A stretch of 12,524 bases of DNA from a virus. The notes under the pieces are model-generated. The model searched no databases. It was not told where the DNA came from and was given only the letters and a program-made list of their open reading frames with translations. The stretch is taken from UHGV virus genome UHGV-0168749; one strand, given 5' to 3'. Shown here piece after piece: positions 1-12,524 of the stretch. The first letter of the stretch is position 1. The number at the start of each line of letters is the position of its first letter. A program made the position numbers and the translations under genes.

Positions 1-29
1 CGGCAGCGTCAGATGTGTATAAGAGACAG
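1..29. other. Illumina Nextera read-1 transposase adapter (Tn5 mosaic end), non-biological
   Basis: Positions 1-29 read CGGCAGCGTCAGATGTGTATAAGAGACAG, the 3' portion of the Nextera read-1 adapter ending in the 19-nt Tn5 mosaic end AGATGTGTATAAGAGACAG. Recognised from established knowledge of the adapter sequence. Confidence 0.9.
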
Positions 30-31
30 CG

Positions 32-3000
32 TCAGAACAGTATGCAACGTACGATAACAAAGGCGGTTATACGTACAACACTACAAAACGCCGTTTTGCC
101 GTTACGTACAAAACCACGACGTTAAATGACTACTCCCTGTCGATGAAATACCGTATTCCTGGTATTTTCCCGAACATGGGAAGCATTAACCCAAATGAAC
201 AAATCGATTGGATGTTGTGCTACGCGAATGGCGGTGCAAGTATCCTTCGTCTTCAATTAAAGCAGCGTAAAATCTCTTTGCGCCTGACCGTAGCGTTAGG
301 AAGCGGCTCAACCGATTACGACTATACGCTAATCAACGGACTGACCGACAGCGAATTGAAAGGTGAGTTAACGTTTAGTGTTGTTCGTCAGCCTGGTAAC
401 GGTGTGTATGTTATCGAGGTGACGACTAACAAACAGACGATGGACTACACGTTCAACGTTGATAACCCACCATCCGAATTCTCAGCAGGTTATAGCAAAA
501 CAGATGTTGCGAAATGGTTGAAATATAAAACCAACGTTAATCTAAACTGGTGGGCGGCTGAAAACGATTATGCACAATTCCTTGCGTTACCTGGTGCGCC
601 AGACGCCGACGTAAGCAATGACGTTTATCAGCTGATTGTCAAATACCATCAGTTGGTGGAACAGCTTTACCGCAACGCACCAGCTCACGAGCACGTTACC
701 CGTAAAGATAACCCACACGTCGATACGTGGGGACCGATTCGTGCGTTAGAGTTAAACGGTATCGCGTCAGATGCTGCTTTGGCTTACGGGAAAACGAAAC
801 AACAGTTAACGGATTACGTTAACAGTAAATACCCGACGCAGGCAACACTGACAGCGCAGAATAAACTGCTACGCACCGCAGCTAACAAAACGGTTGACGG
901 AACTATCAGAACACTGCCAGGCTTTACGTCCTTTACGACGGAAGTTGATCCGGTGTCGATGTCTAAGTACGTGAACCCTTATTTTAGCGAAAGCTATGTT
1001 AGCAATGGTTACACGTATCATGGCGCACTTCGTTATACGGGAACGAAGAATGGATTTGGTACTTATTTTAATGGAGTACCTGCCAACCTGCAAGATATTG
1101 ACTTCATTGTCACCGGACGTAAAACAGCGTCAGGTAATGAAGCAGTCGGTATGGTTGGTTTACGCTTCTATGAAAATCCTGGTAGTAACTCTGGCAAATT
1201 CATTCAACTTACCGGTGAAGTTCTGTCAGGTCGAGTCAGTATCGGTTTACAACTGAACGGTTATGCTAATCCGCAGCCGGAAGTCCAATATGTTTCTCAA
1301 ATCGCCGATCCTGCAATACCTGACGATGATTTTACGTTACGTTTCCAATTAAAACGTACGGGGAACGTATTTGATATCGTTGTTACCGTGAATGGTAAGA
1401 CGTACAGCGCTCGTGTCAACTTCGTTAACATGGATGCTGCGCTAGAAGCGTTAGAGAACCAACATCACTTTAAAACGTTGATTAACAACGTTGCTGATAG
1501 TGTCAGCATTATCTCGCAAAACAAAGGTAACACGGTTACCATTAAGAAAGCGCCGGATGTTGTTGACGAGACCCGTTTAGGTGCTCAGTTTGCCGTTGAC
1601 CCGAAATCCATTAAGTTTATTGGCCAAGGTTCAACCGAAGTTAATGCAGGGAATAACCCCGTAACTTTCCAGGCAGGGACTAATCAGCTGGTATTGTACG
1701 CTGACGATCGTGGCTTGCAGTGGCGTGGTAAGAAACTTTTAGACCCCACCACAGTAGGGCCTTACCTACCAGGTAATACCGCGGGTGGAACAGGATTATT
1801 CTACGCAAACTCGACAGCAACGGTAACCATTACAGGTAACGGAATAAAAGCGTCACCGTTTGTGGCAACGTTTGTCCTCCCTACCGCAACGGATACGACG
1901 TCCTTAGCCGGATGGCAGTTAACCGATGAGTTCGGTACTGCGGAAAATCTGGCAGCGACGCCTGCGTTGATTACAAAACTCGATGCTGAGTTTACGGGTA
2001 AATTGGTCGCGGTAAAATCGTACATTAACGACATGCCGTTAACCAGCTCTATTACCATCGACAAAATCACCTTTAACCTAGGTAACGTTGCAAACACACC
2101 TGACGTCGATTTACCTATTTCTGTTGCACAACAAACAGAGTTGGATAAATATTCACCGAAGGTTCACCGCCACCCGTCAACAGCGTTTGGAGTGGAAAAC
2201 GCAACAACGGATAAACGCGGGTTAATTAAATTCGGATTAGCCGTCGATGATGCAACGCTGGCTTTAGACGCTAGTGTGGTGATGGATCAGACAGCTCGAA
2301 TTGAGAAGCTGGAAGCAACAGTAGGTAACGTAGATTCGGGTGCCCGAATTGACATCATCCGTTACGGTGAAACTGGGAACGACTTAATCGAAGTTACGGT
2401 AAAAGACAAGATACTGGTTACGTTACCCGCCACAACGTATTTCATTGGTGGGGAAACGTATCAAGTGCCGTTAATGACAGTAAACACTGCTGAGCGCTTT
2501 CCAAAACTGAATACGGAAATTGTTGCTGGGGTGTTTGTTGATATTGTCGATAACCGGGCGACTTATGTTATTCACGATAGTTACAGTCAAGCCGAAACGG
2601 ATACCATGACCCGTGTGGGGATGATTGGCGTCAACGATATCTCAGAAGTGTACTTAACCGAGTTGCGTAACGTGACCCGTTTAGGTGATTTCCGGGAATT
2701 GTCAGAACATATTGCTAACGACAATGCGCATATTCAGAGAAGTGCGCCACGTGCAGCTCTAGGTTTGCGCAATTTAACAGTGGGTGCGCCCTGCTGGGCT
2801 TCAGGCTTACAAGCAGTAACACGTGGTGAGGCTGATTGGCGATTTGCGATGGGGAATACGTATAAAGCACTCGACGGCGTAAAATACGATTCCTTAGCTT
2901 CGAAGTGGATATTTGATCCAAAGGGAGTTAGTGATAATGTTCATGGATTTATTCACAATCTTTTCCCGCTGTTCTCGAACGCAGGTGTTCGTGTAACTTG

Positions 3001-3787
3001 GGAAACGGAGAGTAACGCAAAAACGGGCACAGTGCTTGAAACGATTTTAGGTTGTTGGCGGAATAATGCCAATGAGTTTGTTCGCTTGTCTCTTTTAGTG
3101 ACAAGGGGCTACCGCTTAACTGACAGTAAGGGCGAATATTGTTACGCAGGTTTCGGGTTAAACTTCGCTAATGGGAAATCGGTTGTTCTTGGTTTTACAC
3201 CAACGAAGCGTGTTACACCTGCCCCTTGGAGTACATTACAACCCGATATCACATTTACCCACAGACGCGGCGCGAACAACGATGTGACGTTTAATGCGAC
3301 GTTAACACTAGCAGGAACGGTTTATACCATCGTTGTGTATTTGTCAGATGTAGATAAATACGTAAGCTGCACCGCAGCGGGCGGAACAACTCAGAAAATT
3401 TCGTTAACTGATCGTCTAGGTGAGTTAGATATTTCACCCATTGTTAACGATCCTTATACCCCTATCTATTACGGTTTAGGGGGACTTTATGACGACGAGG
3501 TACGCGCCAACCTCCGTACCACTGCTGATAGCATAACAGCAAATAAATCGTACGGAACGCTATTGGATTATATCGCTAACTATTCTGCATTAAACCGCGC
3601 ACGCCTCATTGAGACAGCTGGCCCAAGCTCAGATCCTGAGACGCTAAACGCGCTGGTAGCAAAAGAGTTTGATGATAATTTAGCCGATTATAACGCGTTA
3701 CCGATCCCTCCTTATCTGAACAAGGAGCGTGTCATGTCGTTCTTGGGTGAAAACAATAAACTCAACGCGGTGATTATTCGCGATTAA
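32..3787 (+). CDS. Large phage tail-fibre-like structural protein, probably 5'-partial (the ORF track starts it at the internal Met at 143)
   Basis: The reading frame is open from the first native base after the adapter (the only upstream in-frame stop, TAA at 20-22, lies inside the adapter). No Shine-Dalgarno precedes the ATG at 143 (upstream is ctactccctgtcg). Stop TAA at 3785-3787. Composition is T/N/G/V/Y-rich and it contains the box DLPISVAQQTELDKYSPKVHRHP...ATTDKRGLIKFG (nt ~2102-2238) resembling the conserved tail-fibre K-P-x-S...H-x-H motif. The product call is by motif recall, not a search. Confidence 0.7.
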   Translation, partial: SEQYATYDNKGGYTYNTTKRRFAVTYKTTTLNDYSLSMKYRIPGIFPNMGSINPNEQIDWMLCYANGGASILRLQLKQRKISLRLTVALGSGSTDYDYTLINGLTDSELKGELTFSVVRQPGNGVYVIEVTTNKQTMDYTFNVDNPPSEFSAGYSKTDVAKWLKYKTNVNLNWWAAENDYAQFLALPGAPDADVSNDVYQLIVKYHQLVEQLYRNAPAHEHVTRKDNPHVDTWGPIRALELNGIASDAALAYGKTKQQLTDYVNSKYPTQATLTAQNKLLRTAANKTVDGTIRTLPGFTSFTTEVDPVSMSKYVNPYFSESYVSNGYTYHGALRYTGTKNGFGTYFNGVPANLQDIDFIVTGRKTASGNEAVGMVGLRFYENPGSNSGKFIQLTGEVLSGRVSIGLQLNGYANPQPEVQYVSQIADPAIPDDDFTLRFQLKRTGNVFDIVVTVNGKTYSARVNFVNMDAALEALENQHHFKTLINNVADSVSIISQNKGNTVTIKKAPDVVDETRLGAQFAVDPKSIKFIGQGSTEVNAGNNPVTFQAGTNQLVLYADDRGLQWRGKKLLDPTTVGPYLPGNTAGGTGLFYANSTATVTITGNGIKASPFVATFVLPTATDTTSLAGWQLTDEFGTAENLAATPALITKLDAEFTGKLVAVKSYINDMPLTSSITIDKITFNLGNVANTPDVDLPISVAQQTELDKYSPKVHRHPSTAFGVENATTDKRGLIKFGLAVDDATLALDASVVMDQTARIEKLEATVGNVDSGARIDIIRYGETGNDLIEVTVKDKILVTLPATTYFIGGETYQVPLMTVNTAERFPKLNTEIVAGVFVDIVDNRATYVIHDSYSQAETDTMTRVGMIGVNDISEVYLTELRNVTRLGDFRELSEHIANDNAHIQRSAPRAALGLRNLTVGAPCWASGLQAVTRGEADWRFAMGNTYKALDGVKYDSLASKWIFDPKGVSDNVHGFIHNLFPLFSNAGVRVTWETESNAKTGTVLETILGCWRNNANEFVRLSLLVTRGYRLTDSKGEYCYAGFGLNFANGKSVVLGFTPTKRVTPAPWSTLQPDITFTHRRGANNDVTFNATLTLAGTVYTIVVYLSDVDKYVSCTAAGGTTQKISLTDRLGELDISPIVNDPYTPIYYGLGGLYDDEVRANLRTTADSITANKSYGTLLDYIANYSALNRARLIETAGPSSDPETLNALVAKEFDDNLADYNALPIPPYLNKERVMSFLGENNKLNAVIIRD

Positions 3788-3791
3788 GGAG
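3786..3791 (+). promoter_or_regulatory. Shine-Dalgarno (AAGGAG) for ORF2, overlapping the ORF1 stop codon
   Basis: Sequence gatTAAGGAGaattttttgATG: the ORF1 TAA (3785-3787) overlaps AAGGAG (3786-3791); TTG at 3798 and ATG at 3801 follow at 6 and 9 nt spacing. Confidence 0.75.
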
Positions 3792-3797
3792 AATTTT

Positions 3798-6700
3798 TTG
3801 ATGAAAGCGTATCCTTACGATCCTCGGGGGACGAAAGCCGAGAATCACTTCTTAGAGGAGCGTATCATCGGGTCAGAAAACAACAACGATCGGGTGGTGA
3901 TTTTGGATCATCGCCCGTTCTTTGAAAATCTGGTCGTTAAGCAGCCGGGTTCAACTACCCCACTGAGCCGTGGGGTAGATTACGAACTGCAATATCAGCT
4001 GACGGAACTGGATGACTCGGTAGCAGCCAACGTGTATTGTGGGGTACACCTTATCAACCCATCCATCAAAGGTTTAGTTACTTTTGAAGGACAAATGCTC
4101 GGTGGAACGTTTTACGATCCGTTTGTAGAAATTCTGGATGAGCTTGTAAAACATCTCAATAACCCGACTAGTGCGGATTGGTTGTTATTAGAAGGTCGTC
4201 CGTCGCTTTATCCAGCAACACCTGCTGCAACGTCTTGGGCAGATTTGCTGAATAAAAAATATCTTGCGTCTGCGGTTCATGATATCGAATTAAAAACCGA
4301 TGATGCAAACCAACTGATTAAAGATAAACTGGCCGAGGTTAAAGCACTCGTTGTTGCTCTGGGTAAAGAAATTCAAGCATTTAATTACCCAGCACATATC
4401 GCGGCAAAGAATCCTCATGAAACAACCGTAGCACAAATCGAAGCTCATCCGGTGAATCTCAAAACGCCGGATACCTTTATGGCTTACGGTTTACGTCTGA
4501 AAGCGTTAACGGAAGAACTAAAAGCATTCCGTTTACCACAATCGGTAGTTGACACCTATATTTCTCATTGGATTTCTGATGAGGTCTATGGGAATTTCAA
4601 CTGTACGGTGTCAGGAAACCGTGCACAATTCAGTTCTAAAAATGGTGAATCTGAAATCATTTTTGCGAACGATGGTTTTACGTTGAAGTCAAACGGTTCA
4701 GTTGTGTTGGCGGTCGGGCACTTGGAAGGAACAGGTGCGGGTCGTTACATACAGTGGCGTGCAGGTAAGAACACGTTGCGTATTGAATCAACAGGCGATG
4801 CCTTAGGGATGAATAAACTCACCTTAAACGGCAACCCGTTGCTTACAACGACTGCACTAATGGAATACCAACAAGACCCTGACGAAGGGACAGGTGGTAA
4901 TGACCCTGATGACACTAAAGTGTATATCGAGGGTCGCAACGGAATTAGCTTTACGGGTAAAGGTTCACGCGCTGACCCTATCGTAGGGGTTATCGACCCT
5001 CAAAAAGCGACTCTGACTGAAAAAGGCGTCGCTAAACTGAAAACCGGTAAAGGAACGGAAACAACGGGCGTTGCAGCAACACCGGGGTCACTGACACCGT
5101 ACTCAACGGACTTGTCCGGGTATGTGCCGAAAACGACGCTGCTAAACGGTAAGGCGATGAACGACGGTTCTCGCCAGATTACCAAAGCAGAGTTAGGATT
5201 GGAACATGCTGACAATACCGCCGATGTTGATAAACCGCTGTCCTCGGCTCTAAGTACGGCAGTTGAAGGACTTGCGGAAAAGAACCACCATCACGAGTGG
5301 TCAGAATTAGGCATTTATAAGGCTTCTCAATCCATTTACGGTATAGGTCGTTATGCGACTAACCAAAATGGCTTAGTCGAGGGACGGGCTGTAGTGCCTA
5401 ATATTCTCAAAGAACTTTCTGCAAGGCTTGAAGTTGTTGCCGCAGCGATTGCAAATGCGAAAGAAGGTACGGTAACAGATTTTGCTGCGGTACAAGGTGC
5501 GCAGTGGCGGTTTAATAGTCAAGGTACTGCTTTAACCGTACAGGATCTGAAAGTCTTTTATTTGTTTGATGGTAACAAAGACGAAGCTACCCTGACCGGT
5601 GCAATTGATCTTCAGACAACGCCAATGTTCAACTGGTTTTCGCCAAATAACCAGCTTGAAACTACCTGGCCGGAAGCAAAAGTTAGCAAAGGAACAGGAA
5701 TTACTTGGGACGGTATTGATGAACCACCGTTAATGGGCTATCACTCTGTGCCTGTTGGAAAGACAGCAACACAAATGGGTGATCAGTCTGTAATTACTGT
5801 TCTTGCTAAAGCTCGGGTCAAAGCGTACCAGTCTAAGCTATGGGTTTATGCTGCCGGTGGTGGCCCCGTAACCGTGTACATTAACGGTGTGCAAGTTGCC
5901 TCCGGTGAATCGCCATTATTAACTGTTTACGAAACTTCACCAAACGTCGAGAACTATGTTGTTGCAATAAAAGCGGAATGTAGCGACACGGCAAAATCAG
6001 CTGCGGTGCAGTTTGAGATATATGACGGTGATTACCCTGTATATTTCAGTGGTCCCGAAACACACGTAGAGTTGTTAGCCGATTTCGTCACAACACATGT
6101 TGGGATTCGTCATTATCTTTACGTTAACATGCTCACAGGTTCTCTGTATTCTCGTGCTGAGCCGATCGAATCAAACCAGGTTGATCCTGAGCGCGGTTTT
6201 ATCGGATACGTAGATGTTTACGCAGGCGAAAATTACGCGAATAAGACGGTAACTTTCGACACCACTTTCGACTTTGGTACAAGTGCAGAAATTGGCAACC
6301 ATGTGACCACGCGAAACGCCCACGGGTTAAAAGTGGTCGACTGGTCGCTGACAGATAACCCCAGATTACCGTTATTGAACCGCGCTATTCCCGAACCACG
6401 TGCGTTGGTTTATCGTAAGATGCTAACGGCGGGAAGTGGCGGGACTGCTGTAAGCTTGAGTCGCGGTTTGCTTACTTATTCGCATGGGCTAAATGTTAAA
6501 ACTGCTTTACAGCTAATTTTCTCGACCGAAGGTGCAACGCCGTATTGTTGGTTTACACCATTCAACCCTAAAGAAAATAGTGCCCCCACATTCGAAGGGT
6601 CGTTTGTTTTTGATGTTGATGATGTTGGCGGGACAAAAGCACTCACAGCAGCTCCAGATCTTATACTCTGTGCTAGTTCACAAGGTAGTTCTGTAGGACG

Positions 6701-7988
6701 TCGATACGTTCGTTTTAATCTTACGGATAAGACCTGCAAAGTGGGTGTTGGTACGGTGCGTACTAATGAGACGTGGTACAAAACGTTTGAAACAAACGAT
6801 GGGGTGATGTTGATGGAAACAGCAAATGAGACCGCTGTTTCTGCAACTACCAAAGACGTGTTATTTAATGGCGATGAAACTAATCCAGCAATTCTTGACC
6901 TTTTAGGTTGGGGTGTAAGCAAGGATAAGATTTCTCCTGTTCACGCCCCAAGGGGAATGATACGTTACCGTTATAATGTTCAAACTCGTGTCTTACGATT
7001 AGCACTTTCTTTCTCGCAGTTTAACACAACAGCGGTTAAACAACGCCAAGTAGAGTTCCAACTTCCGTTTGATTTGGTAGATTATTTTGCTGGCGATGGC
7101 GTTGGGCTGGCGTTTAGTGAACTCAGCGAGAAGTGTCGTTTGACGATTAGCCATGGTTTAATAGACCCGGTTACATCTAATATTGACATTGATAAGTATC
7201 ATTACTTGCGTGGCTTGTTTGAATCGTACGTAGATAGTTCTATCGGTCAGCTTTCGGATGCTCGTGATGCCGATTATGCCCAGACCGCAATAGACCCCGC
7301 ATCGTACGAGATTAAATCTGAGTTCCGTTTTACCGAAGCAATAGGTTTACCTCTGGGACAAGGTGTTGCTTCTTTGTCGCATGAAGGTCAACTACCTGCG
7401 CAGTTCTACGATCGTAAGTTAGCTCGCGGTGCTTTGGTTTCTCAGAACTCTACGTGGAATAACGCGTGGAGTACCACGTCGCCTGCATCAGATAAACATC
7501 GTGGAAATTTGATCTTGCGATTCGCACAGGGCGTTAGTAAAGCACATTATCGCATCGCGCGTGTGTCGGGAACGATTAAAAGCAACTGGCCAGGGAAAGT
7601 GATTATCGGTGATGCACAGAAAGATGCTTTCTTATCTGCAACTGACATCGTCGAATTTGCTTTGTCGACATCTTCTGATGTGGGTAAAGCAATAAGCTTA
7701 ACTCCCGTGGATCTACGGGCAGGCCAAGACCTTTATATCGTCCTTGAGTTGCCGGGCGACAACCCAGAGGGGTATGAGTTGAACTTCAGCTGCAATTTAG
7801 AAATCTTTGATGAAACCAATACTCGTCAAGATCAACTGAACGTGCAAAGTTTTGAAGTTCGTTCCGGCGATGAACAAGTGATGATAACAAAGCGTAATCC
7901 GTACCATATCACGAGCAAAGCGTGGAAATGGATTTTAGCTGTACTGAAACGTGAACTTAACGGTAAACAGTTAGGGGATCGCACTTAG
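3798..7988 (+). CDS. Large phage tail-fibre-like protein (~1396 aa) with a canonical fibre repeat and a His-triplet box; start may be the ATG at 3801 rather than TTG at 3798
   Basis: Uninterrupted ORF with a strong RBS and TAG stop at 7986-7988. It contains QKATLTEKGVAKLKTGKGTETTGVAATPGSL (nt ~5001-5090), closely matching the tail-fibre repeat type A-T-x-x-x-K-G-V-x-x-L...A-A-T-P known from lambda Stf and T4 gp12/gp34, followed by LGLEHADNTADVDKPLSSALSTAVEGLAEKNHHHEW (nt ~5196-5300). The C-terminal ~700 aa look like a different, globular, Cys-containing module. Confidence 0.8.
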   Translation: MMKAYPYDPRGTKAENHFLEERIIGSENNNDRVVILDHRPFFENLVVKQPGSTTPLSRGVDYELQYQLTELDDSVAANVYCGVHLINPSIKGLVTFEGQMLGGTFYDPFVEILDELVKHLNNPTSADWLLLEGRPSLYPATPAATSWADLLNKKYLASAVHDIELKTDDANQLIKDKLAEVKALVVALGKEIQAFNYPAHIAAKNPHETTVAQIEAHPVNLKTPDTFMAYGLRLKALTEELKAFRLPQSVVDTYISHWISDEVYGNFNCTVSGNRAQFSSKNGESEIIFANDGFTLKSNGSVVLAVGHLEGTGAGRYIQWRAGKNTLRIESTGDALGMNKLTLNGNPLLTTTALMEYQQDPDEGTGGNDPDDTKVYIEGRNGISFTGKGSRADPIVGVIDPQKATLTEKGVAKLKTGKGTETTGVAATPGSLTPYSTDLSGYVPKTTLLNGKAMNDGSRQITKAELGLEHADNTADVDKPLSSALSTAVEGLAEKNHHHEWSELGIYKASQSIYGIGRYATNQNGLVEGRAVVPNILKELSARLEVVAAAIANAKEGTVTDFAAVQGAQWRFNSQGTALTVQDLKVFYLFDGNKDEATLTGAIDLQTTPMFNWFSPNNQLETTWPEAKVSKGTGITWDGIDEPPLMGYHSVPVGKTATQMGDQSVITVLAKARVKAYQSKLWVYAAGGGPVTVYINGVQVASGESPLLTVYETSPNVENYVVAIKAECSDTAKSAAVQFEIYDGDYPVYFSGPETHVELLADFVTTHVGIRHYLYVNMLTGSLYSRAEPIESNQVDPERGFIGYVDVYAGENYANKTVTFDTTFDFGTSAEIGNHVTTRNAHGLKVVDWSLTDNPRLPLLNRAIPEPRALVYRKMLTAGSGGTAVSLSRGLLTYSHGLNVKTALQLIFSTEGATPYCWFTPFNPKENSAPTFEGSFVFDVDDVGGTKALTAAPDLILCASSQGSSVGRRYVRFNLTDKTCKVGVGTVRTNETWYKTFETNDGVMLMETANETAVSATTKDVLFNGDETNPAILDLLGWGVSKDKISPVHAPRGMIRYRYNVQTRVLRLALSFSQFNTTAVKQRQVEFQLPFDLVDYFAGDGVGLAFSELSEKCRLTISHGLIDPVTSNIDIDKYHYLRGLFESYVDSSIGQLSDARDADYAQTAIDPASYEIKSEFRFTEAIGLPLGQGVASLSHEGQLPAQFYDRKLARGALVSQNSTWNNAWSTTSPASDKHRGNLILRFAQGVSKAHYRIARVSGTIKSNWPGKVIIGDAQKDAFLSATDIVEFALSTSSDVGKAISLTPVDLRAGQDLYIVLELPGDNPEGYELNFSCNLEIFDETNTRQDQLNVQSFEVRSGDEQVMITKRNPYHITSKAWKWILAVLKRELNGKQLGDRT

Positions 7989-8025
7989 GACAGACTGCCT
8001 GCGGGCAGTAATGTGTCCGTAGGTA

Positions 8026-8064
8026 ACCCCTCCCTGTAAAAAGGGAGGGGTATCCATTTTATTT
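8026..8064 (+). terminator. Putative rho-independent terminator between ORF2 and ORF3
   Basis: Perfect inverted repeat aCCCCTCCCT (8026-8035) / AGGGAGGGGt (8042-8051) with a 6-nt loop GTAAAA, followed by a T-rich tract (atccaTTTTATTT, to 8064). The U-tract is offset ~5 nt from the stem, so strength is uncertain. A smaller hairpin ACTGCC-tgcg-GGCAGT lies at 7994-8009, just after the ORF2 stop. Confidence 0.5.
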
Positions 8065-8070
8065 AAAAGT

Positions 8071-8075
8071 AGGAG
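8071..8075 (+). promoter_or_regulatory. Shine-Dalgarno (AGGAG) for ORF3
   Basis: gtAGGAGtctttacgATG: AGGAG at 8071-8075, 8 nt upstream of the ATG at 8084. Confidence 0.75.
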
Positions 8076-8083
8076 TCTTTACG

Positions 8084-11000
8084 ATGCCGAGAGAAGACGC
8101 GGCGCTGTTTAACGGTACGTTAAATACGTCAACGTACCCTAACCGATTTAACGTGGTCATCCCGCCGGAAGGCCCCTTTTATCGTATCGGATTAAAGCTC
8201 ACTGTTGCTGACGAGTCCGCCGCCGGTGGCCGTCGTACCTTAATAGAAGGTCTGGACTACTATTTAGGTTATTACTTTAAAGAGCTCGCTGAGGCAGAAC
8301 AAGACCAAATTTACGGCGGGTTCATGTTACTGACTGCCACTGAGGTGGAATACGAAATTCTGGGTGTAGCGCGCCAGTACCGTATCCCACAATCGGAAAT
8401 TGGCAAGTATCTAGTTCGTACCGATTTAAAAGATCCGCGTAACGTGGATTGGTCCGAATTAATGGCGTATGCTCCTGTCATACAGCCTATTGACCCGCCT
8501 GCTAACTTAGAAGAAGCCCTACTCAGGGACGAAGTAGTAAAAGCATTAGATGATATTCGTAAAAAGATTATCAAACGTTCCACTGAACTGGATGCTGCTT
8601 TTAGCGAAGTTACGAATCTGATTTACGAAAACGGTAAGAAGGTTTTTGACGAAGAGCTTTATCAGCACCATTTGAACCCTAATGTTCACAACTACACGAC
8701 TGAAGACATTGGTGCACTGCCTGTGTTGGGGCGTGCCGTAGATGCGACAAAAGCTTTCAACAGAACGTTAGATGAACTCGCAACGTTGATGGGTTCTGCG
8801 GGAATTGAGCAGTCGGACGTAGACCAGTTGATGGGCCGTACACTCGGCACGGTTTATGGTCGTTGGCGTGCTTCAAACGGTAAAGAACTGGCGTTCAAAA
8901 CCGCAGGCGGTCATGTAATCAGTATCCGAAATGATAAGTGGTTGATTACGTCACCACAACCATTAGTGATTAAAGCTGACCAGGACAACAATGAATCAGG
9001 CTTAGCCGTTGAGTTCAGCGCTGGGTTGAACACCCTTTGGGTACACTCTGGCTCCGAGCAAGATGTTTTAGCGCCAGTGTATAACTCCGTGTATCTGGTT
9101 ACACCAGACATGGTGAACATGTACTTAACATCGGTGACGTTGCTGGAAGCTAATGCGTACTTCTCGTCTTCAGACACAGTGAAAGCGTACGGTACATCGA
9201 AACAATCCAACCCATTGACGTTAAATGCAAATATCCCTACGGCGTCTGAGTCGGTTTACGGATTGTTCTCTATTACGAATATCGCAACATCAGCTGCGTT
9301 GGGTACAGCAATATCCCAAAAAGCCGTTACTGAATTAAAAGACCGGTTAGACTTGTACGTCGATGATGATTACACCATTAACGGTAAAGGATTTGTTAAG
9401 ACCGGTGAGAACATGGTATTGACGTTAACGAAAACGGATTTCGGCATCGATAAAATGGACAATACCAGTCCGGCTAACAAACCAGTAACAAAAGCACTGA
9501 CAAATGTTTTAAAGAACAAAGCATTGTCTAACCACACCCACGTGTTTGGCGATTTGGATAATGTACCGATCGGTAGTGCGACGGTAGACGGCTTATTACA
9601 GTTGTGGGATGCTATAGACACTACTAATGATAAAGCGGTCACTTCGCGTCAAGGGTGGTTATTTGCGAAAGAGATCAAGAAAGTTACTGACAAACTGAAC
9701 ACTATTTTACCGGCTTGGACCGTAGGTGGTGCGAAGTTTGGTAACAAAAACTTTCTACCAATTCCGGCACTTGGTAACTATTCAGGCTTTACAAAGAACC
9801 AGTCTTACCAAAAAGGGGTTGTTGGTTATCAGCAAGGGAAGGTCTACTCGCTACGTAATGCTTCTAATGGCGTGCCGGGTACAGAAGCTATTTATTACGG
9901 TTATGCGGATATCAACTCGTCAAATGCGTTTGAAAATCCACAACAGACCTCGGTGAAATACCATCCTGTTGGACTGAGTAAGTATCCTGGTGTAACTTTA
10001 AAAGCGATTTTGATTGGTGGTCAGGAAGCGATCATTTGCCTGGGCTCCGACAATAACCGGTATTTGGTGCTGTTTAACGGTTCGATGGACCACGCCAAAC
10101 ACACCGTGGTTTGTCGTGTGACGATGCCTGTCTATCGTAACGGTAACCCTAGCGGAACCGTTGAACAAACTTGGAATCCGTGGCCAGAAGCCGACGATGT
10201 TGTGCTGGTTGATGATTACGTCTATCTTCTCCGTTCTACGGTGAATAACTCTGCTTATGCAGTGGCGGCTTGGCGTTTGCGTAAAGCTGATTTGTATACC
10301 AGCACCACGTTAGAATTTGAACGCGTAACATTAACAGGCGAAATGGGTCAATACGGAGATAACCTCTGTTTACGAATCGGTCAAAAAACTGAGGAGTCTC
10401 AGTCTGGGCAGTTCTTTACGTATTTTACACCAGAAGCACGCGCTAAATGGACTAACGGACATAACTTTGTTCACGGGCCGGAATGCAACCATGCTTGCGC
10501 GGTGCGTGACAGCGTGATCCGCGTGAACCATATGCCCACGGTATGGTTTGCGGCGGCTGATGGCTCACAAATTAACTTTCGTCAATGGGCAACAAGTTTT
10601 ACGATCGATACGTTGACGGGCAAAGTTACGTTAGAAGGTGCCGAACGCTTCCCCATCAAGGCTGATGCTACTACACTCTCGTTCGCGGACGGTTCAACTG
10701 TAGAAACTAGTCGCAAGTGGGGTGGTGGTCAGGCAAACAATCGTTGTTTTGCAACGTTTGCAAAACCTAACGGTACGGGAATGATGCTTTCCTGCTGGCA
10801 AGTTAACGACGCAGACCAAATGCCGAACGTTTCTATTAAAGGAACGCAAGGCAAAGAGCTTTTCGATTATCTGCGTTACGATAACCCGAACAATACTTCA
10901 GGTGAAGGGACTTTTACATGGGATAAAGGACGCGGTTCTATTTATACCATCGGTCTTTCTCACCCTGTCGGTATTGGAGGCTCGAACAAAGTCTGGTTGT

Positions 11001-12475
11001 CTAATCCACGTAACCGTTACACAATCGAAGTTGAGGTTGACCCGAACACGCCGTACAATGTACCTGGTTACAGCGGATACGGTCCAAATAACAACCGTCG
11101 CGAGGTTGATCCTACACTTTACGAGCAGTTGAGCTGTATGGCTGCGTGTATGACGCCAGAGGAGCGCCACGGCCAACTTAACGGTTGGTATCTAACAAAA
11201 GCAGAGACTTTCCCATACCGGAATATCTACGGTAATTTTGCGTTGTCTTCAGAACGCTTGACGTTAGAAGAAGCTGATCGCCAGAAGATGATTCGAATGA
11301 TTGTCGATGGTGCGCCGTCAGGCGAAGCTAATGGCTATGCGAATGAACGTATTAGCGCAGCACACCAAACAGGCAATGCGTTATTTGCTCTTTGGATGTT
11401 GGGTATTAACACCGTGTGCGAGTTTGACTTATTACAAGTTTCGTGCATGAAAACCTTAGATAATGGGCGTCGTATTCTCGATATCTATTACTTCATGGTG
11501 AGCCCATCTAAAGAGAATGGTTATCTACGTTTTAACTCCGCAACCTTTAAGCTGGTCGACTGGTTCTTAGATAAGGACTACGGTTTAAGTTATCAGTCCT
11601 TGAATGAAGAAGCGGGTAATAAAACACGACGTGTGGGTCAGCCTATCTTTGCTTCTGCGGATGGTGTTAACTTCGGTATTTGGTTACCGTATACGTTGAC
11701 GATTCGGAATATCGGTGATTTGAACGCATTAGGCTACGCCGCGAAATATACTTACGACCCTGGGTCGGGTTGGACTCGTGTTCCTGGTAAGTCTCAGTTG
11801 CGTCAGATGGCTCCTGCCCATAACCCAGAATCCGGGTGTTACATGGGCGCGGGCAGTTGGGATAAGATGGCATTGATTTATTCCAAGGCTGACCGTGTAT
11901 TCTGCTCGGGTAATGCGTACACTGCCGCAGAGTTTGTTAACGACACAACATTCTCAACAGGCGGTCAAGCGGTCATTATTTCCGGTGTGGAAACGGCGGA
12001 AGGTTGGATTCTGTATTTAACGGAAGAAGTTAAATTGGATTTTGGTAGCAGTAGTTATACGCTTCCAACGTGGTCGGTAGATTTAAGTAATCAATTTCCA
12101 TCTAACCACGCCAATCAAACCTTCTACGTCCACGGCGAAGTTGTAGGCTCAACTGCACAGTATCAGATAGGTCTGGAGCAGCTTCCTGATAATGCGACTC
12201 GGCTGTTCGTTGGAACAGTCACAACGGACAGCAAACGTATCGTTGATATCAATATCGATAAGGTGAAACGTCTTGGTCGTGTTCGTGAACTGGAAGAACA
12301 TGCCGCTGTGGTTGATCAACACGACGTAGCGGCGGCGTTTGATCGAAAAACAGGACCACTACAGACGCTGGTTAACCAACCGTTGAAAGCTCCTGCGGCA
12401 TCTACGGTAAAAGGTTCTGGTTATGTTGATGCACAGAAGTGGAATTCACTTTCTGCGCTGGCATATAAGCCAGGT
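8084..12475 (+). CDS. Large phage tail-fibre-like protein, 3'-partial (at least 1464 native residues; reading frame runs into the adapter)
   Basis: ORF with a good RBS. It contains the box MDNTSPANKPVTKALTNVLKNKALSNHTHVFGD followed by GSATVDGLLQLWDAIDTTNDKAVTSRQGW (nt ~9455-9675), matching the tail-fibre motifs D-N-T-S-x-x-x-K-P-V-S/T...H-x-H and A-S/T-x-x-x-G-x-x-Q-L...A-A/V-T. No stop occurs before the adapter at 12476; the last ~16 residues of the 6-frame track translation (LSLIHISEPTRP...) are adapter-encoded. The C-terminal half is unusually Cys-rich. Confidence 0.8.
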
Positions 12476-12524
12476 CTGTCTCTTATACACATCTCCGAGC
12501 CCACGAGACCCTAAGACATCTCGT
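12476..12524. other. Illumina Nextera read-2 adapter (reverse complement) plus 8-nt index and start of the P7-side sequence, non-biological
   Basis: 12476-12509 read CTGTCTCTTATACACATCTCCGAGCCCACGAGAC (reverse complement of the Nextera read-2 adapter), followed by the 8-nt index CCTAAGAC and ATCTCGT, the start of the sequence that follows the index in Nextera libraries. Confidence 0.9.

Follow-up and report, generated by a model that had tools for sequence, protein, structure and literature searches.

Three tandem gp131-family paralogs in a metagenomic fragment of a probable SPN3US-related jumbo phage: a putative baseplate-fibre module with variable distal regions

UHGV virus genome UHGV-0168749 is a stretch of 12,524 nucleotides (hereafter the window, meaning the whole of the DNA that we analysed) deposited as a SPAdes metagenome contig (ENA ERZ1026973 NODE_388; coverage 5.4x). 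Its native DNA spans positions 30-12475, is bounded on both sides by untrimmed Nextera/Tn5 adapters of the public contig, and is filled by three giant open reading frames (ORFs) on the + strand, called at 143-3787, 3798-7988 and 8084-12514. An earlier note, made from the letters alone, had described three consecutive giant ORFs on one strand, each with a tail-fibre-type motif; our ORF calls and motif scan agree with that description, with the limits of the genes corrected as follows.

1..29, no strand: Nextera read-1 adapter, not native, with the Tn5 mosaic end at 11-29 (AGATGTGTATAAGAGACAG)
32..3787, + strand: ORF1, orthologue of SPN3US gp170, 5'-truncated (phrog_7557, E=0; 1251 codons present)
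3801..7988, + strand: ORF2, orthologue of SPN3US gp169, 1395 amino acids (aa), the only complete gene (phrog_8078, E=0, full length)
8084..12475, + strand: ORF3, orthologue of SPN3US gp168, 3'-truncated (phrog_7449, E=0, profile positions 1-1430 of 1714)
12476..12524, no strand: Nextera adapter, i7 side, read directly, with the reverse Tn5 mosaic end first (CTGTCTCTTATACACATCTCCGAGCCCACGAGAC...)

The frame of ORF1 is open from position 32, its sole upstream stop (TAA, 20-22) lies inside the adapter, and the 37 codons that precede ATG-143 align with an Erwinia phage orthologue from residue 192 onward. Because the frame is open upstream, the stop is adapter-borne and the upstream codons are homologous, we conclude that ORF1 is 5'-truncated and that ATG 143 is not its true start. 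Full-length relatives have 1440-1441 aa (records P0182-P0271; 1389-5714 in the relative L007, described below), and the ~190 N-terminal aa that are missing in the window correspond to the gp131-like N-terminal attachment domain. The true start of ORF2 is ATG 3801, which has AGGAG 8 nt upstream, and not TTG 3798. At the other end of the window, the last 12 codons of ORF3 as called ('LSLIHISEPTRP') and its stop are adapter, leaving 1464 native codons; full-length relatives of 1726-1728 aa are 85-96% identical, and ~262 aa are missing. As deposited, the call for this gene (8084-12514; 1476 aa) takes in the adapter-encoded residues.

Each ORF matches its own PHROGs 'virion structural protein' family with E=0 (phrog_7557, phrog_8078 and phrog_7449 for ORF1, ORF2 and ORF3, with cross-matches between the families). 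By BLASTP, ORF1, ORF2 and ORF3 are 44%, 47% and 54% identical to gp170, gp169 and gp168 of phage SPN3US over near the whole shared length; ORF1 is 44-47% identical to SPN3US gp170 and Ea29_263, and ORF3 54-58% identical to the SPN3US and Ea29 orthologues. A tblastn search of deposited phages with ORF2 found homologues in 79 jumbo-phage records at 40-50.5% identity, the best being Erwinia phage pEa_SNUABM_29 and the matches including the SPN3US, phiEaH2 and Asesino groups. SPN3US, pEa_SNUABM_29, the contigs L007 and L008, and the Escherichia coli 98232 record all have the three genes in this order. In SPN3US and pEa_SNUABM_29 the trio has a divergent 420-aa gene (gp171) upstream and a 400-aa gene (gp167) downstream. 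The complete order gp171(-), gp170, gp169, gp168, gp167 (+) is found in L007, a 96%-identical relative that carries all five genes, and likewise in L008 and E. coli 98232; in our contig these flanks lie outside the window.

No deposited phage genome is nearer than about 50-58% aa identity to the clade of the window, and megablast against phages returned a single 500-nt match at 72%. Hundreds of homologues at 80-98% identity are instead found on ~220-227-kb contigs of isolate assemblies of Salmonella (many serovars), E. coli and Shigella (P0062-P0301), and the element has been filed as a circular 'plasmid' in NZ_CP173450.1 (E. coli 98232, our L011; 221,873 bp) and NZ_CP134650.1 (Enterobacter ludwigii; 222,441 bp). 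Given these labels, one 222-kb 'plasmid' record among them, and weak Foldseek matches to Tc toxins and anthrax protective antigen, the three ORFs might be imagined to encode large adhesins or RHS/toxin proteins that belong to a bacterium or a plasmid. However, searches of Pfam and NCBIfam gave no RHS, toxin or adhesin match, the window holds no tandem repeats, synteny with SPN3US is full, and the records are jumbo-phage genomes carried by isolates; a non-phage origin of this kind is effectively excluded, with a probability close to nil. Homology to a family of that sort would, by the earlier note, have refuted its reading; homology to phage fibre proteins was found instead. Persistent virulent 'Seoul-like' jumbo phages have been described in bacterial isolates (bioRxiv 10.1101/2024.12.31.630880; PMC12768965), and the ~222-kb records match them; we prefer a persistent jumbo phage to a giant plasmid or bacterial adhesin as the reading of these records.

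Published work on the SPN3US orthologues places them in the virion. Mass spectrometry of purified SPN3US virions found gp168, gp169 and gp170, which were grouped as 'Paralog family C' and noted to be similar to phiKZ gp131 (Ali et al. 2017, PMC5694885). All three were absent from the tailless mutant 64_112(am27) and were labelled 'baseplate/tail fiber candidates', and gp168 is an essential member of the family (PMC5694885). Together with the N-terminal homology to phiKZ fibre proteins described below, these virion data bear out the proposal that the ORFs encode fibre-like virion proteins. Some gp168 orthologues (SPFM phages, SPAsTU) are annotated 'YomR' in GenBank.

We compared the three proteins with one another. 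A motif scan found exactly one copy per ORF of the motif NT[S/A/P]x4P[VIL][ST] followed ~20 residues later by HxH, and BLASTP found further modules common to the ORFs.

2093-2173, + strand: fibre motif of ORF1, NTPDVDLPIS...HRH (motif scan)
5214..5294, + strand: fibre motif of ORF2, NTADVDKPLS...HHH (phrog_35419 tail fiber, aa 439-491, E=1e-4)
9461..9541, + strand: fibre motif of ORF3, NTSPANKPVT...HTH (phrog_35419 tail fiber, aa 443-500, E=2.5e-6)
1589..2353, + strand: ORF1 shaft module of ~260 aa, common to ORF2 aa 293-560 and to ORF3 (BLASTP, E=4e-12 and 1e-5)
2396..2818, + strand: ORF1 module of ~140 aa, common to ORF3 aa 1304-1442 (BLASTP, E=2e-5 and 6e-5)

The local matches of ORF2 and ORF3 to PHROG 'tail fiber protein' families cover only 50-60 aa, and the motif stretch of ORF1 matches no such family. 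ORF2 and ORF3 have their first ~500 residues in common (24% identity, E=1e-20 to 1e-22), and ORF1 is related to ORF2 with E=5e-10 to 4e-12. The ORF1 module at 2396..2818 ends in a conserved junction motif, RLGDFRELSEHIANDNAH, beyond which identity to close relatives falls. Since no DNA-level similarity is left between the paralogs, the duplications are old; dispersed DNA repeats between them, which could drive gene conversion, amount to chance-size matches at most. We conclude that the three ORFs are ancient paralogs, each built of a gp131-like N-domain, a shaft with one NTxDxxKP...HxH motif and a paralog-specific distal domain. Serial duplication and divergence of a fibre gene had been suggested from the letters alone, and by BLASTP the three proteins are demonstrable paralogs.

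The N-terminal domains connect this family to the fibre proteins of phage phiKZ.

3804..4460, + strand: ORF2 gp131-like N-terminal domain, next segment and H..NPH motif (BLASTP, hhalign)
8084..8743, + strand: ORF3 region of the gp131-like N-terminal domain (paralogous to the N-terminus of ORF2, E=1e-20; in the family profile)

By BLASTP, ORF2 aa 4-138 matches phiKZ gp131 aa 9-146 with E=8e-9, and ORF2 also matches gp135; ORF3 matches gp131 weakly (E=2e-3). For ORF1, whose N-terminus is missing, aa 5-157 of the L007 orthologue match gp131 with E=4e-7. A profile of the N-terminal 230 residues of the family (including ORF2 and ORF3) aligned by hhalign with a profile of gp131/133/134/135 over 197 columns with 99.6% probability and E=1.5e-23, and the alignment runs on through the region downstream of the N-domain. 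The stretch 3804..4460 of ORF2 is presumed to be a baseplate-attachment and oligomerisation region. Homology extends to the flanks: SPN3US gp171 matches phiKZ gp130 (E=1e-14), as does the 420-aa protein of L007 (E=2e-11), and gp167 matches phiKZ gp135 (E=4e-13). In both phiKZ and SPN3US, a divergent gp130-like gene adjoins the paralog array.

In phiKZ, which has 12 peripheral fibres, each site under gp130 holds six gp131-like N-domains and a six-helix bundle; in a 2026 cryo-EM structural atlas the base has been fitted as a candidate assembly of three gp131 copies with gp133, gp134 and gp135 that continues into a gp131 trimer (PMC13250141). By analogy, the N-domains of ORF1, ORF2 and ORF3 and of a gp167-like fourth paralog would dock under the gp130-like gp171, and the docked paralogs would form a multi-component peripheral fibre complex with several different distal heads. 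A rough measure, spectral counts per mass, gives 1.0-1.4 for SPN3US gp168/169/170 and 0.93-1.29 for the 12-copy portal (PMC5694885). These similar counts hint at low and equal copy numbers, which would fit one of each paralog per site. We put forward, as a tentative model that we regard as possible and would not call probable, that the paralogs and the gp167-like protein co-assemble through their N-domains under the gp130-like protein, giving one hetero-oligomeric, multi-headed adhesin per peripheral site whose heads could be swapped independently. The multi-component fibre apparatus envisaged in the earlier note has its counterpart in phiKZ, where the N-domains of the paralogs were fitted into one candidate hetero-hexameric base (PMC13250141).

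The same genes could encode three independent homotrimeric fibres that dock separately, much as T4 has separate long fibres and short fibres. It is generally known that homotrimers prevail among the phage fibres that have been characterised, and the fibre-motif regions of the window proteins gave low-confidence models when folded as monomers with AlphaFold 2 (AF2), as expected for intertwined oligomers. A distal gp131 homotrimer was also modelled below the phiKZ base (PMC13250141). However, that base was fitted with six N-domains from four paralogs, and the four-paralog set is conserved from phiKZ to the SPN3US-like phages. In addition, spectral counts near those of the 12-copy portal, rough as this measure is, sit uneasily with the at least 36 copies of each protein that separate homotrimers would need. 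We consider separate homotrimers rather unlikely. The distal regions of the three proteins are as follows.

2729..3784, + strand: ORF1 variable distal C-terminal region, ~350 aa (56-72% aa and 62-74% nt identity to L007, beside a 100% block)
5448..7985, + strand: ORF2 variable distal region, aa 550-1395 (34-74% aa identity to L007; lineage-restricted)
5478..6290, + strand: ORF2 jelly-roll beta domain of lectin/carbohydrate-binding-module (CBM) type, aa 560-830 (AF2, predicted local distance difference test (pLDDT) 80-93; Foldseek)
9746..12268, + strand: ORF3 conserved globular core, aa 555-1395, with at least one beta-propeller (AF2 model, Foldseek)

Compared with L007, the window is a mosaic. 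Nucleotide blocks at 2030-2630, 3830-5030 and 8030-12030 are 96-100% identical, the remainder is 47-80% identical, and the transitions are abrupt. At the protein level, identity is ~100% over ORF1 aa 650-850 (extended numbering), ORF2 aa 1-450 and ORF3 aa 1-1300, and drops to 34-78% distally in every gene and in N-proximal ORF1. Conserved motifs coincide with the breakpoints or are close to them: RLGDFRELSEH..NAH in ORF1, NHHHEW in ORF2, where the fibre motif itself coincides with the breakpoint, and RLGRVRELEEH in ORF3. Since high- and low-identity blocks alternate so sharply, the comparison indicates that distal cassettes have probably been exchanged by recombination, as expected of host-interaction proteins. 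Mosaicism, which the earlier note had anticipated for a host-range module, is thus evident in these blocks. As a separate observation, the first 268 aa of ORF1 after Met-143 are 68% identical to SPN3US gp170 and ~34% identical to the Erwinia phage orthologue (46% over aa 100-268), while the remaining ORF1 is 44-47% identical to both. This contrast indicates a likely older, inter-clade mosaicism besides the recent exchange of blocks with L007.

The predicted folds of the distal parts differ between the paralogs. An AF2 model of ORF2 aa 501-1395 (pLDDT 70.9) contains, after the jelly-roll domain at aa 560-830, further beta-sandwiches. Foldseek matched ORF2 to a Pleurotus lectin (probability 0.97-0.98), to beta-sandwich accessory domains of glycoside hydrolase (GH) families GH78 and GH2, to legume lectins and to tail-tip chains of phages Chi and T1. 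The same Pleurotus lectin was retrieved in a sequence search of the PDB at E=0.7, notable solely because Foldseek finds the same protein. Among 1.84 billion proteins, the ORF2 distal region has 16 representatives, mostly orthologues of ~1300-1390 aa, the rest being short or repetitive weak matches. The AF2 model of ORF3 aa 265-1464, built from a 46-sequence alignment, has pLDDT 77.8 overall and about 90 over aa ~555-1395. Its top Foldseek matches are all beta-propellers, the best being 5-6-bladed Kelch, GH130 and lectin propellers, and the matches also include a phage receptor-binding protein and an endosialidase. We considered an enzymatic (glycosidase or sialidase) propeller, which the alignment does not support: the core residues that never vary across the 46 homologues are Tyr, His, Gly and Pro, with no invariant Asp or Glu. 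The absence of an invariant acidic residue argues against a conserved glycosidase. For ORF1, the distal ~350 aa are a candidate for the receptor-binding part.

In the model that we propose, the heads of the complex would be the lectin-like beta-sandwiches of ORF2, the propeller core and variable C-terminus of ORF3, and the C-terminal domain of ORF1. The targets of these heads would be structures on the surface of the host, carbohydrates being the most plausible, and recombination would swap the distal cassettes at the conserved junction motifs and so re-tune host range. Receptor binding by the window proteins is something that we infer from these features. A different possibility is that the three proteins serve mainly as a peripheral scaffold in the outer baseplate, which is large in jumbo phages, and that receptors are recognised elsewhere, for example by other tail proteins or by DUF7941 filaments. 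The published label is indeed 'baseplate/tail fiber candidate' and not fibre (PMC5694885); the ORF3 core is 92-100% conserved within the clade and lacks invariant acidic residues of catalytic type; and a 2026 preprint on phage Goslar, whose fibres could not be resolved, proposes other host-recognition elements, and also that the DUF7941 family forms a baseplate-associated 'fiber cloud'. A mainly scaffolding role is nevertheless improbable, given that variability is greatest in the distal part of each of the three genes and that these parts are exchanged in blocks, which is typical of host-interaction surfaces, that the ORF2 folds are lectin/CBM-like and the ORF3 matches include a receptor-binding protein, and that the family forms the fibres of phiKZ (PMC13250141).

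Homology identifies the window proteins as probable tail-associated virion proteins of the gp131 family, as paralogs of one another, and as proteins whose distal parts vary and appear to be exchanged. Taken as a whole, the explanation that we consider likely is that the window, a metagenomic fragment, comes from the baseplate-fibre module of a ~222-kb jumbo phage of Enterobacteriaceae, uncultured and related to SPN3US (Seoul-like, phiKZ-related). Beyond what the letters had suggested, our analysis adds that two of the three genes are truncated, that the source is a jumbo phage, that a fourth, short paralog and a divergent gp130-like gene belong to the module, and that the family has already been described.

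Several observations weigh against this explanation or parts of it. First, the fibre role, for the window proteins and for SPN3US gp168-170 alike, is a putative one drawn from homology. Searches of Pfam gave no match at E<=0.1 for any ORF, including to Phage_fiber_2, Collar, Peptidase_S74 and PTR (one of the diverse homologues gives PTR at E=0.046, short of the cut-off); NCBIfam gave nothing, the diverse homologues likewise had no hit in Pfam or NCBIfam, and PDB sequence searches with single sequences and family profiles gave nothing significant. Second, the fold matches are generic ones between predicted models and known structures, with low template-modelling scores and multi-domain queries, and the C-terminal domain of phiKZ gp131 is not among the listed Foldseek hits for the ORF3 core. 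Third, the phiKZ hetero-hexamer is itself a candidate, obtained by fitting predicted models to maps of 4.4-4.6 A (PMC13250141), and the SPN3US-type paralogs have 1240-1730 aa, compared with 110-771 aa for phiKZ gp131-135; because they are so much longer, their stoichiometry may differ from that of phiKZ. Fourth, the papers that we consulted name no receptor for SPN3US, nor receptors or receptor-binding proteins of SPN3US-type phages in general. Fifth, with coverage at 5x, some of the mosaic blocks could have arisen in assembly, as chimeras between strains that occur together. Finally, PHROGs places phrog_7557 and phrog_8078 under 'head and packaging', which would make the products head or internal virion proteins. 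This label looks wrong, because particles that lack tails and consist of heads only do not contain the SPN3US orthologues (PMC5694885), and because these orthologues are homologous to phiKZ fibres; the neighbouring gp130-like gene is also a baseplate gene. A location in the head is effectively excluded, and we give it very little credence.

Earlier publications already cover the family, the paralogy of its members, their place in the tail and the link to gp131, and a fibre base made of several paralogs has been visualised in phiKZ; the window reveals no new kind of system. What is new is incremental: a diverged set of alleles from a clade that has no deposited isolate, an extra domain in ORF1, fold assignments for the distal parts, and mapped cassette boundaries, the exchangeable cassettes beginning at nt ~2630, ~5030 and ~12030 in the three paralogs. 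How nucleus-forming jumbo phages recognise their hosts is poorly understood, and no part of the phiKZ and Goslar structures is less well resolved than the peripheral baseplate with its fibres. The clade is widespread in enterobacterial isolates and lacks a cultured representative, and the fold hypotheses and cassette limits should be useful for host-range engineering or host prediction in Seoul-like phages. If the multi-headed adhesin is real, it would be a combinatorial host-range device and may help persistent jumbo phages to span Salmonella, E. coli, Shigella and Enterobacter.

Two further features of the window are conserved within its clade or beyond.

947..1564, + strand: ORF1 insertion of ~200 aa, beta-rich by sequence (alignment gap in SPN3US gp170 and in the orthologue from the Erwinia phage)
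7989..8083, + strand: conserved ORF2-ORF3 spacer with two hairpins (84% column identity, six phages)

The insertion is kept throughout the ~222-kb clade; over its bins, aligned identity to the records L001 and L002 is 0%, and tblastn found no match to it in 50,697 phage records. Compared by hhalign with the N-proximal beta-domain of ORF1, it gave a weak match (34% probability, E=4e-4, 42 columns), a faint hint at most that it arose as an internal duplicate of that domain. The spacer aligns with L007 9907-10000, L001 13183-13279 and L002 13132-13226, and its conservation exceeds that of the flanking genes across phages whose proteins are ~50% identical. Hairpin 1 has a UNCG-type tetraloop; hairpin 2 (8026-8051) is GC-rich, is followed by a T-run and is the best terminator-like site in the window, and the Shine-Dalgarno sequence TAGGAGT follows it. 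Stem sequences vary between lineages and the hairpins are kept, although RNAalifold, with three lineages only, found no double-change pairs. Neither the spacer nor the window as a whole matched an Rfam family, none reaching the gathering threshold in the scan. As a terminator, an attenuator or an element of mRNA stability, the spacer may set how much of the first two paralogs is made relative to the third. One further ORF of at least 100 aa, antisense at 6476-6922, was considered as a gene and rejected as spurious, because stop codons break its frame in three close relatives (L007, L008 and L011). In the close relatives, the genes that follow the fibre module code for two radical-SAM proteins, one DUF4376 protein and a pair of small DUF7941 proteins (L007 18560-20789 and 22034-23175; L008 18887-21128 and 22377-23514).

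Among known systems, the closest is SPN3US gp170/169/168, where the three genes have one-to-one orthologues, ordered and oriented as in the window, with the same spacer separating gene two from gene three and the same NTxDxxKP...HxH motif; the flanks found in the window's close relatives are also the same (divergent gp171, downstream gp167, then radical-SAM genes). The differences are that identity is only 44-58% aa, that ORF1 of the window clade has 1441 aa whereas gp170 has 1237 aa, the former having a ~200-aa extra domain, and that divergence is strong in the distal domains, with 24-26% identity over the final ~325 aa of the ORF3 orthologue in L007, a stretch that falls mostly outside the window; moreover, the window comes from a ~222-kb clade with no deposited phage isolate. 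With phiKZ gp131/133/134/135 and gp130 (Sycheva 2012; PMC13250141), the module has in common the N-terminal domain, a tandem array beside a divergent gp130-like gene and four N-domain paralogs per genome. A beta-propeller is predicted in the distal part of ORF3, and the gp131 C-terminal domain is a 7-bladed propeller (PDB 4GBF), with no specific match between the two. In contrast to phiKZ, the window proteins are 2-3x longer, with added shaft and beta-sandwich modules, their sequence similarity is confined to the N-region, and the distal part of ORF2 is predicted to be a beta-sandwich and not a propeller. The Klebsiella jumbo phage phiKp24 (PMC9700779), set beside the window by description, is the same in concept, with several fibre proteins in one branched host-recognition apparatus; however, it belongs to an unrelated lineage and its fibres are tailspikes of the depolymerase type, an enzymatic domain that was not detected in the window. 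Lastly, T4 gp34-37 and gp12 have no detectable sequence or Pfam relationship to the window proteins, and T4 also differs in that the window-type module has no identifiable chaperone gene; yet the T4 proteins, too, are elongated adhesins attached to the baseplate, have motifs of the HxH type and are mosaic at their distal tips, and the authors of the phiKZ study liken the phiKZ fibres functionally to the short fibres of T4 (PMC13250141).

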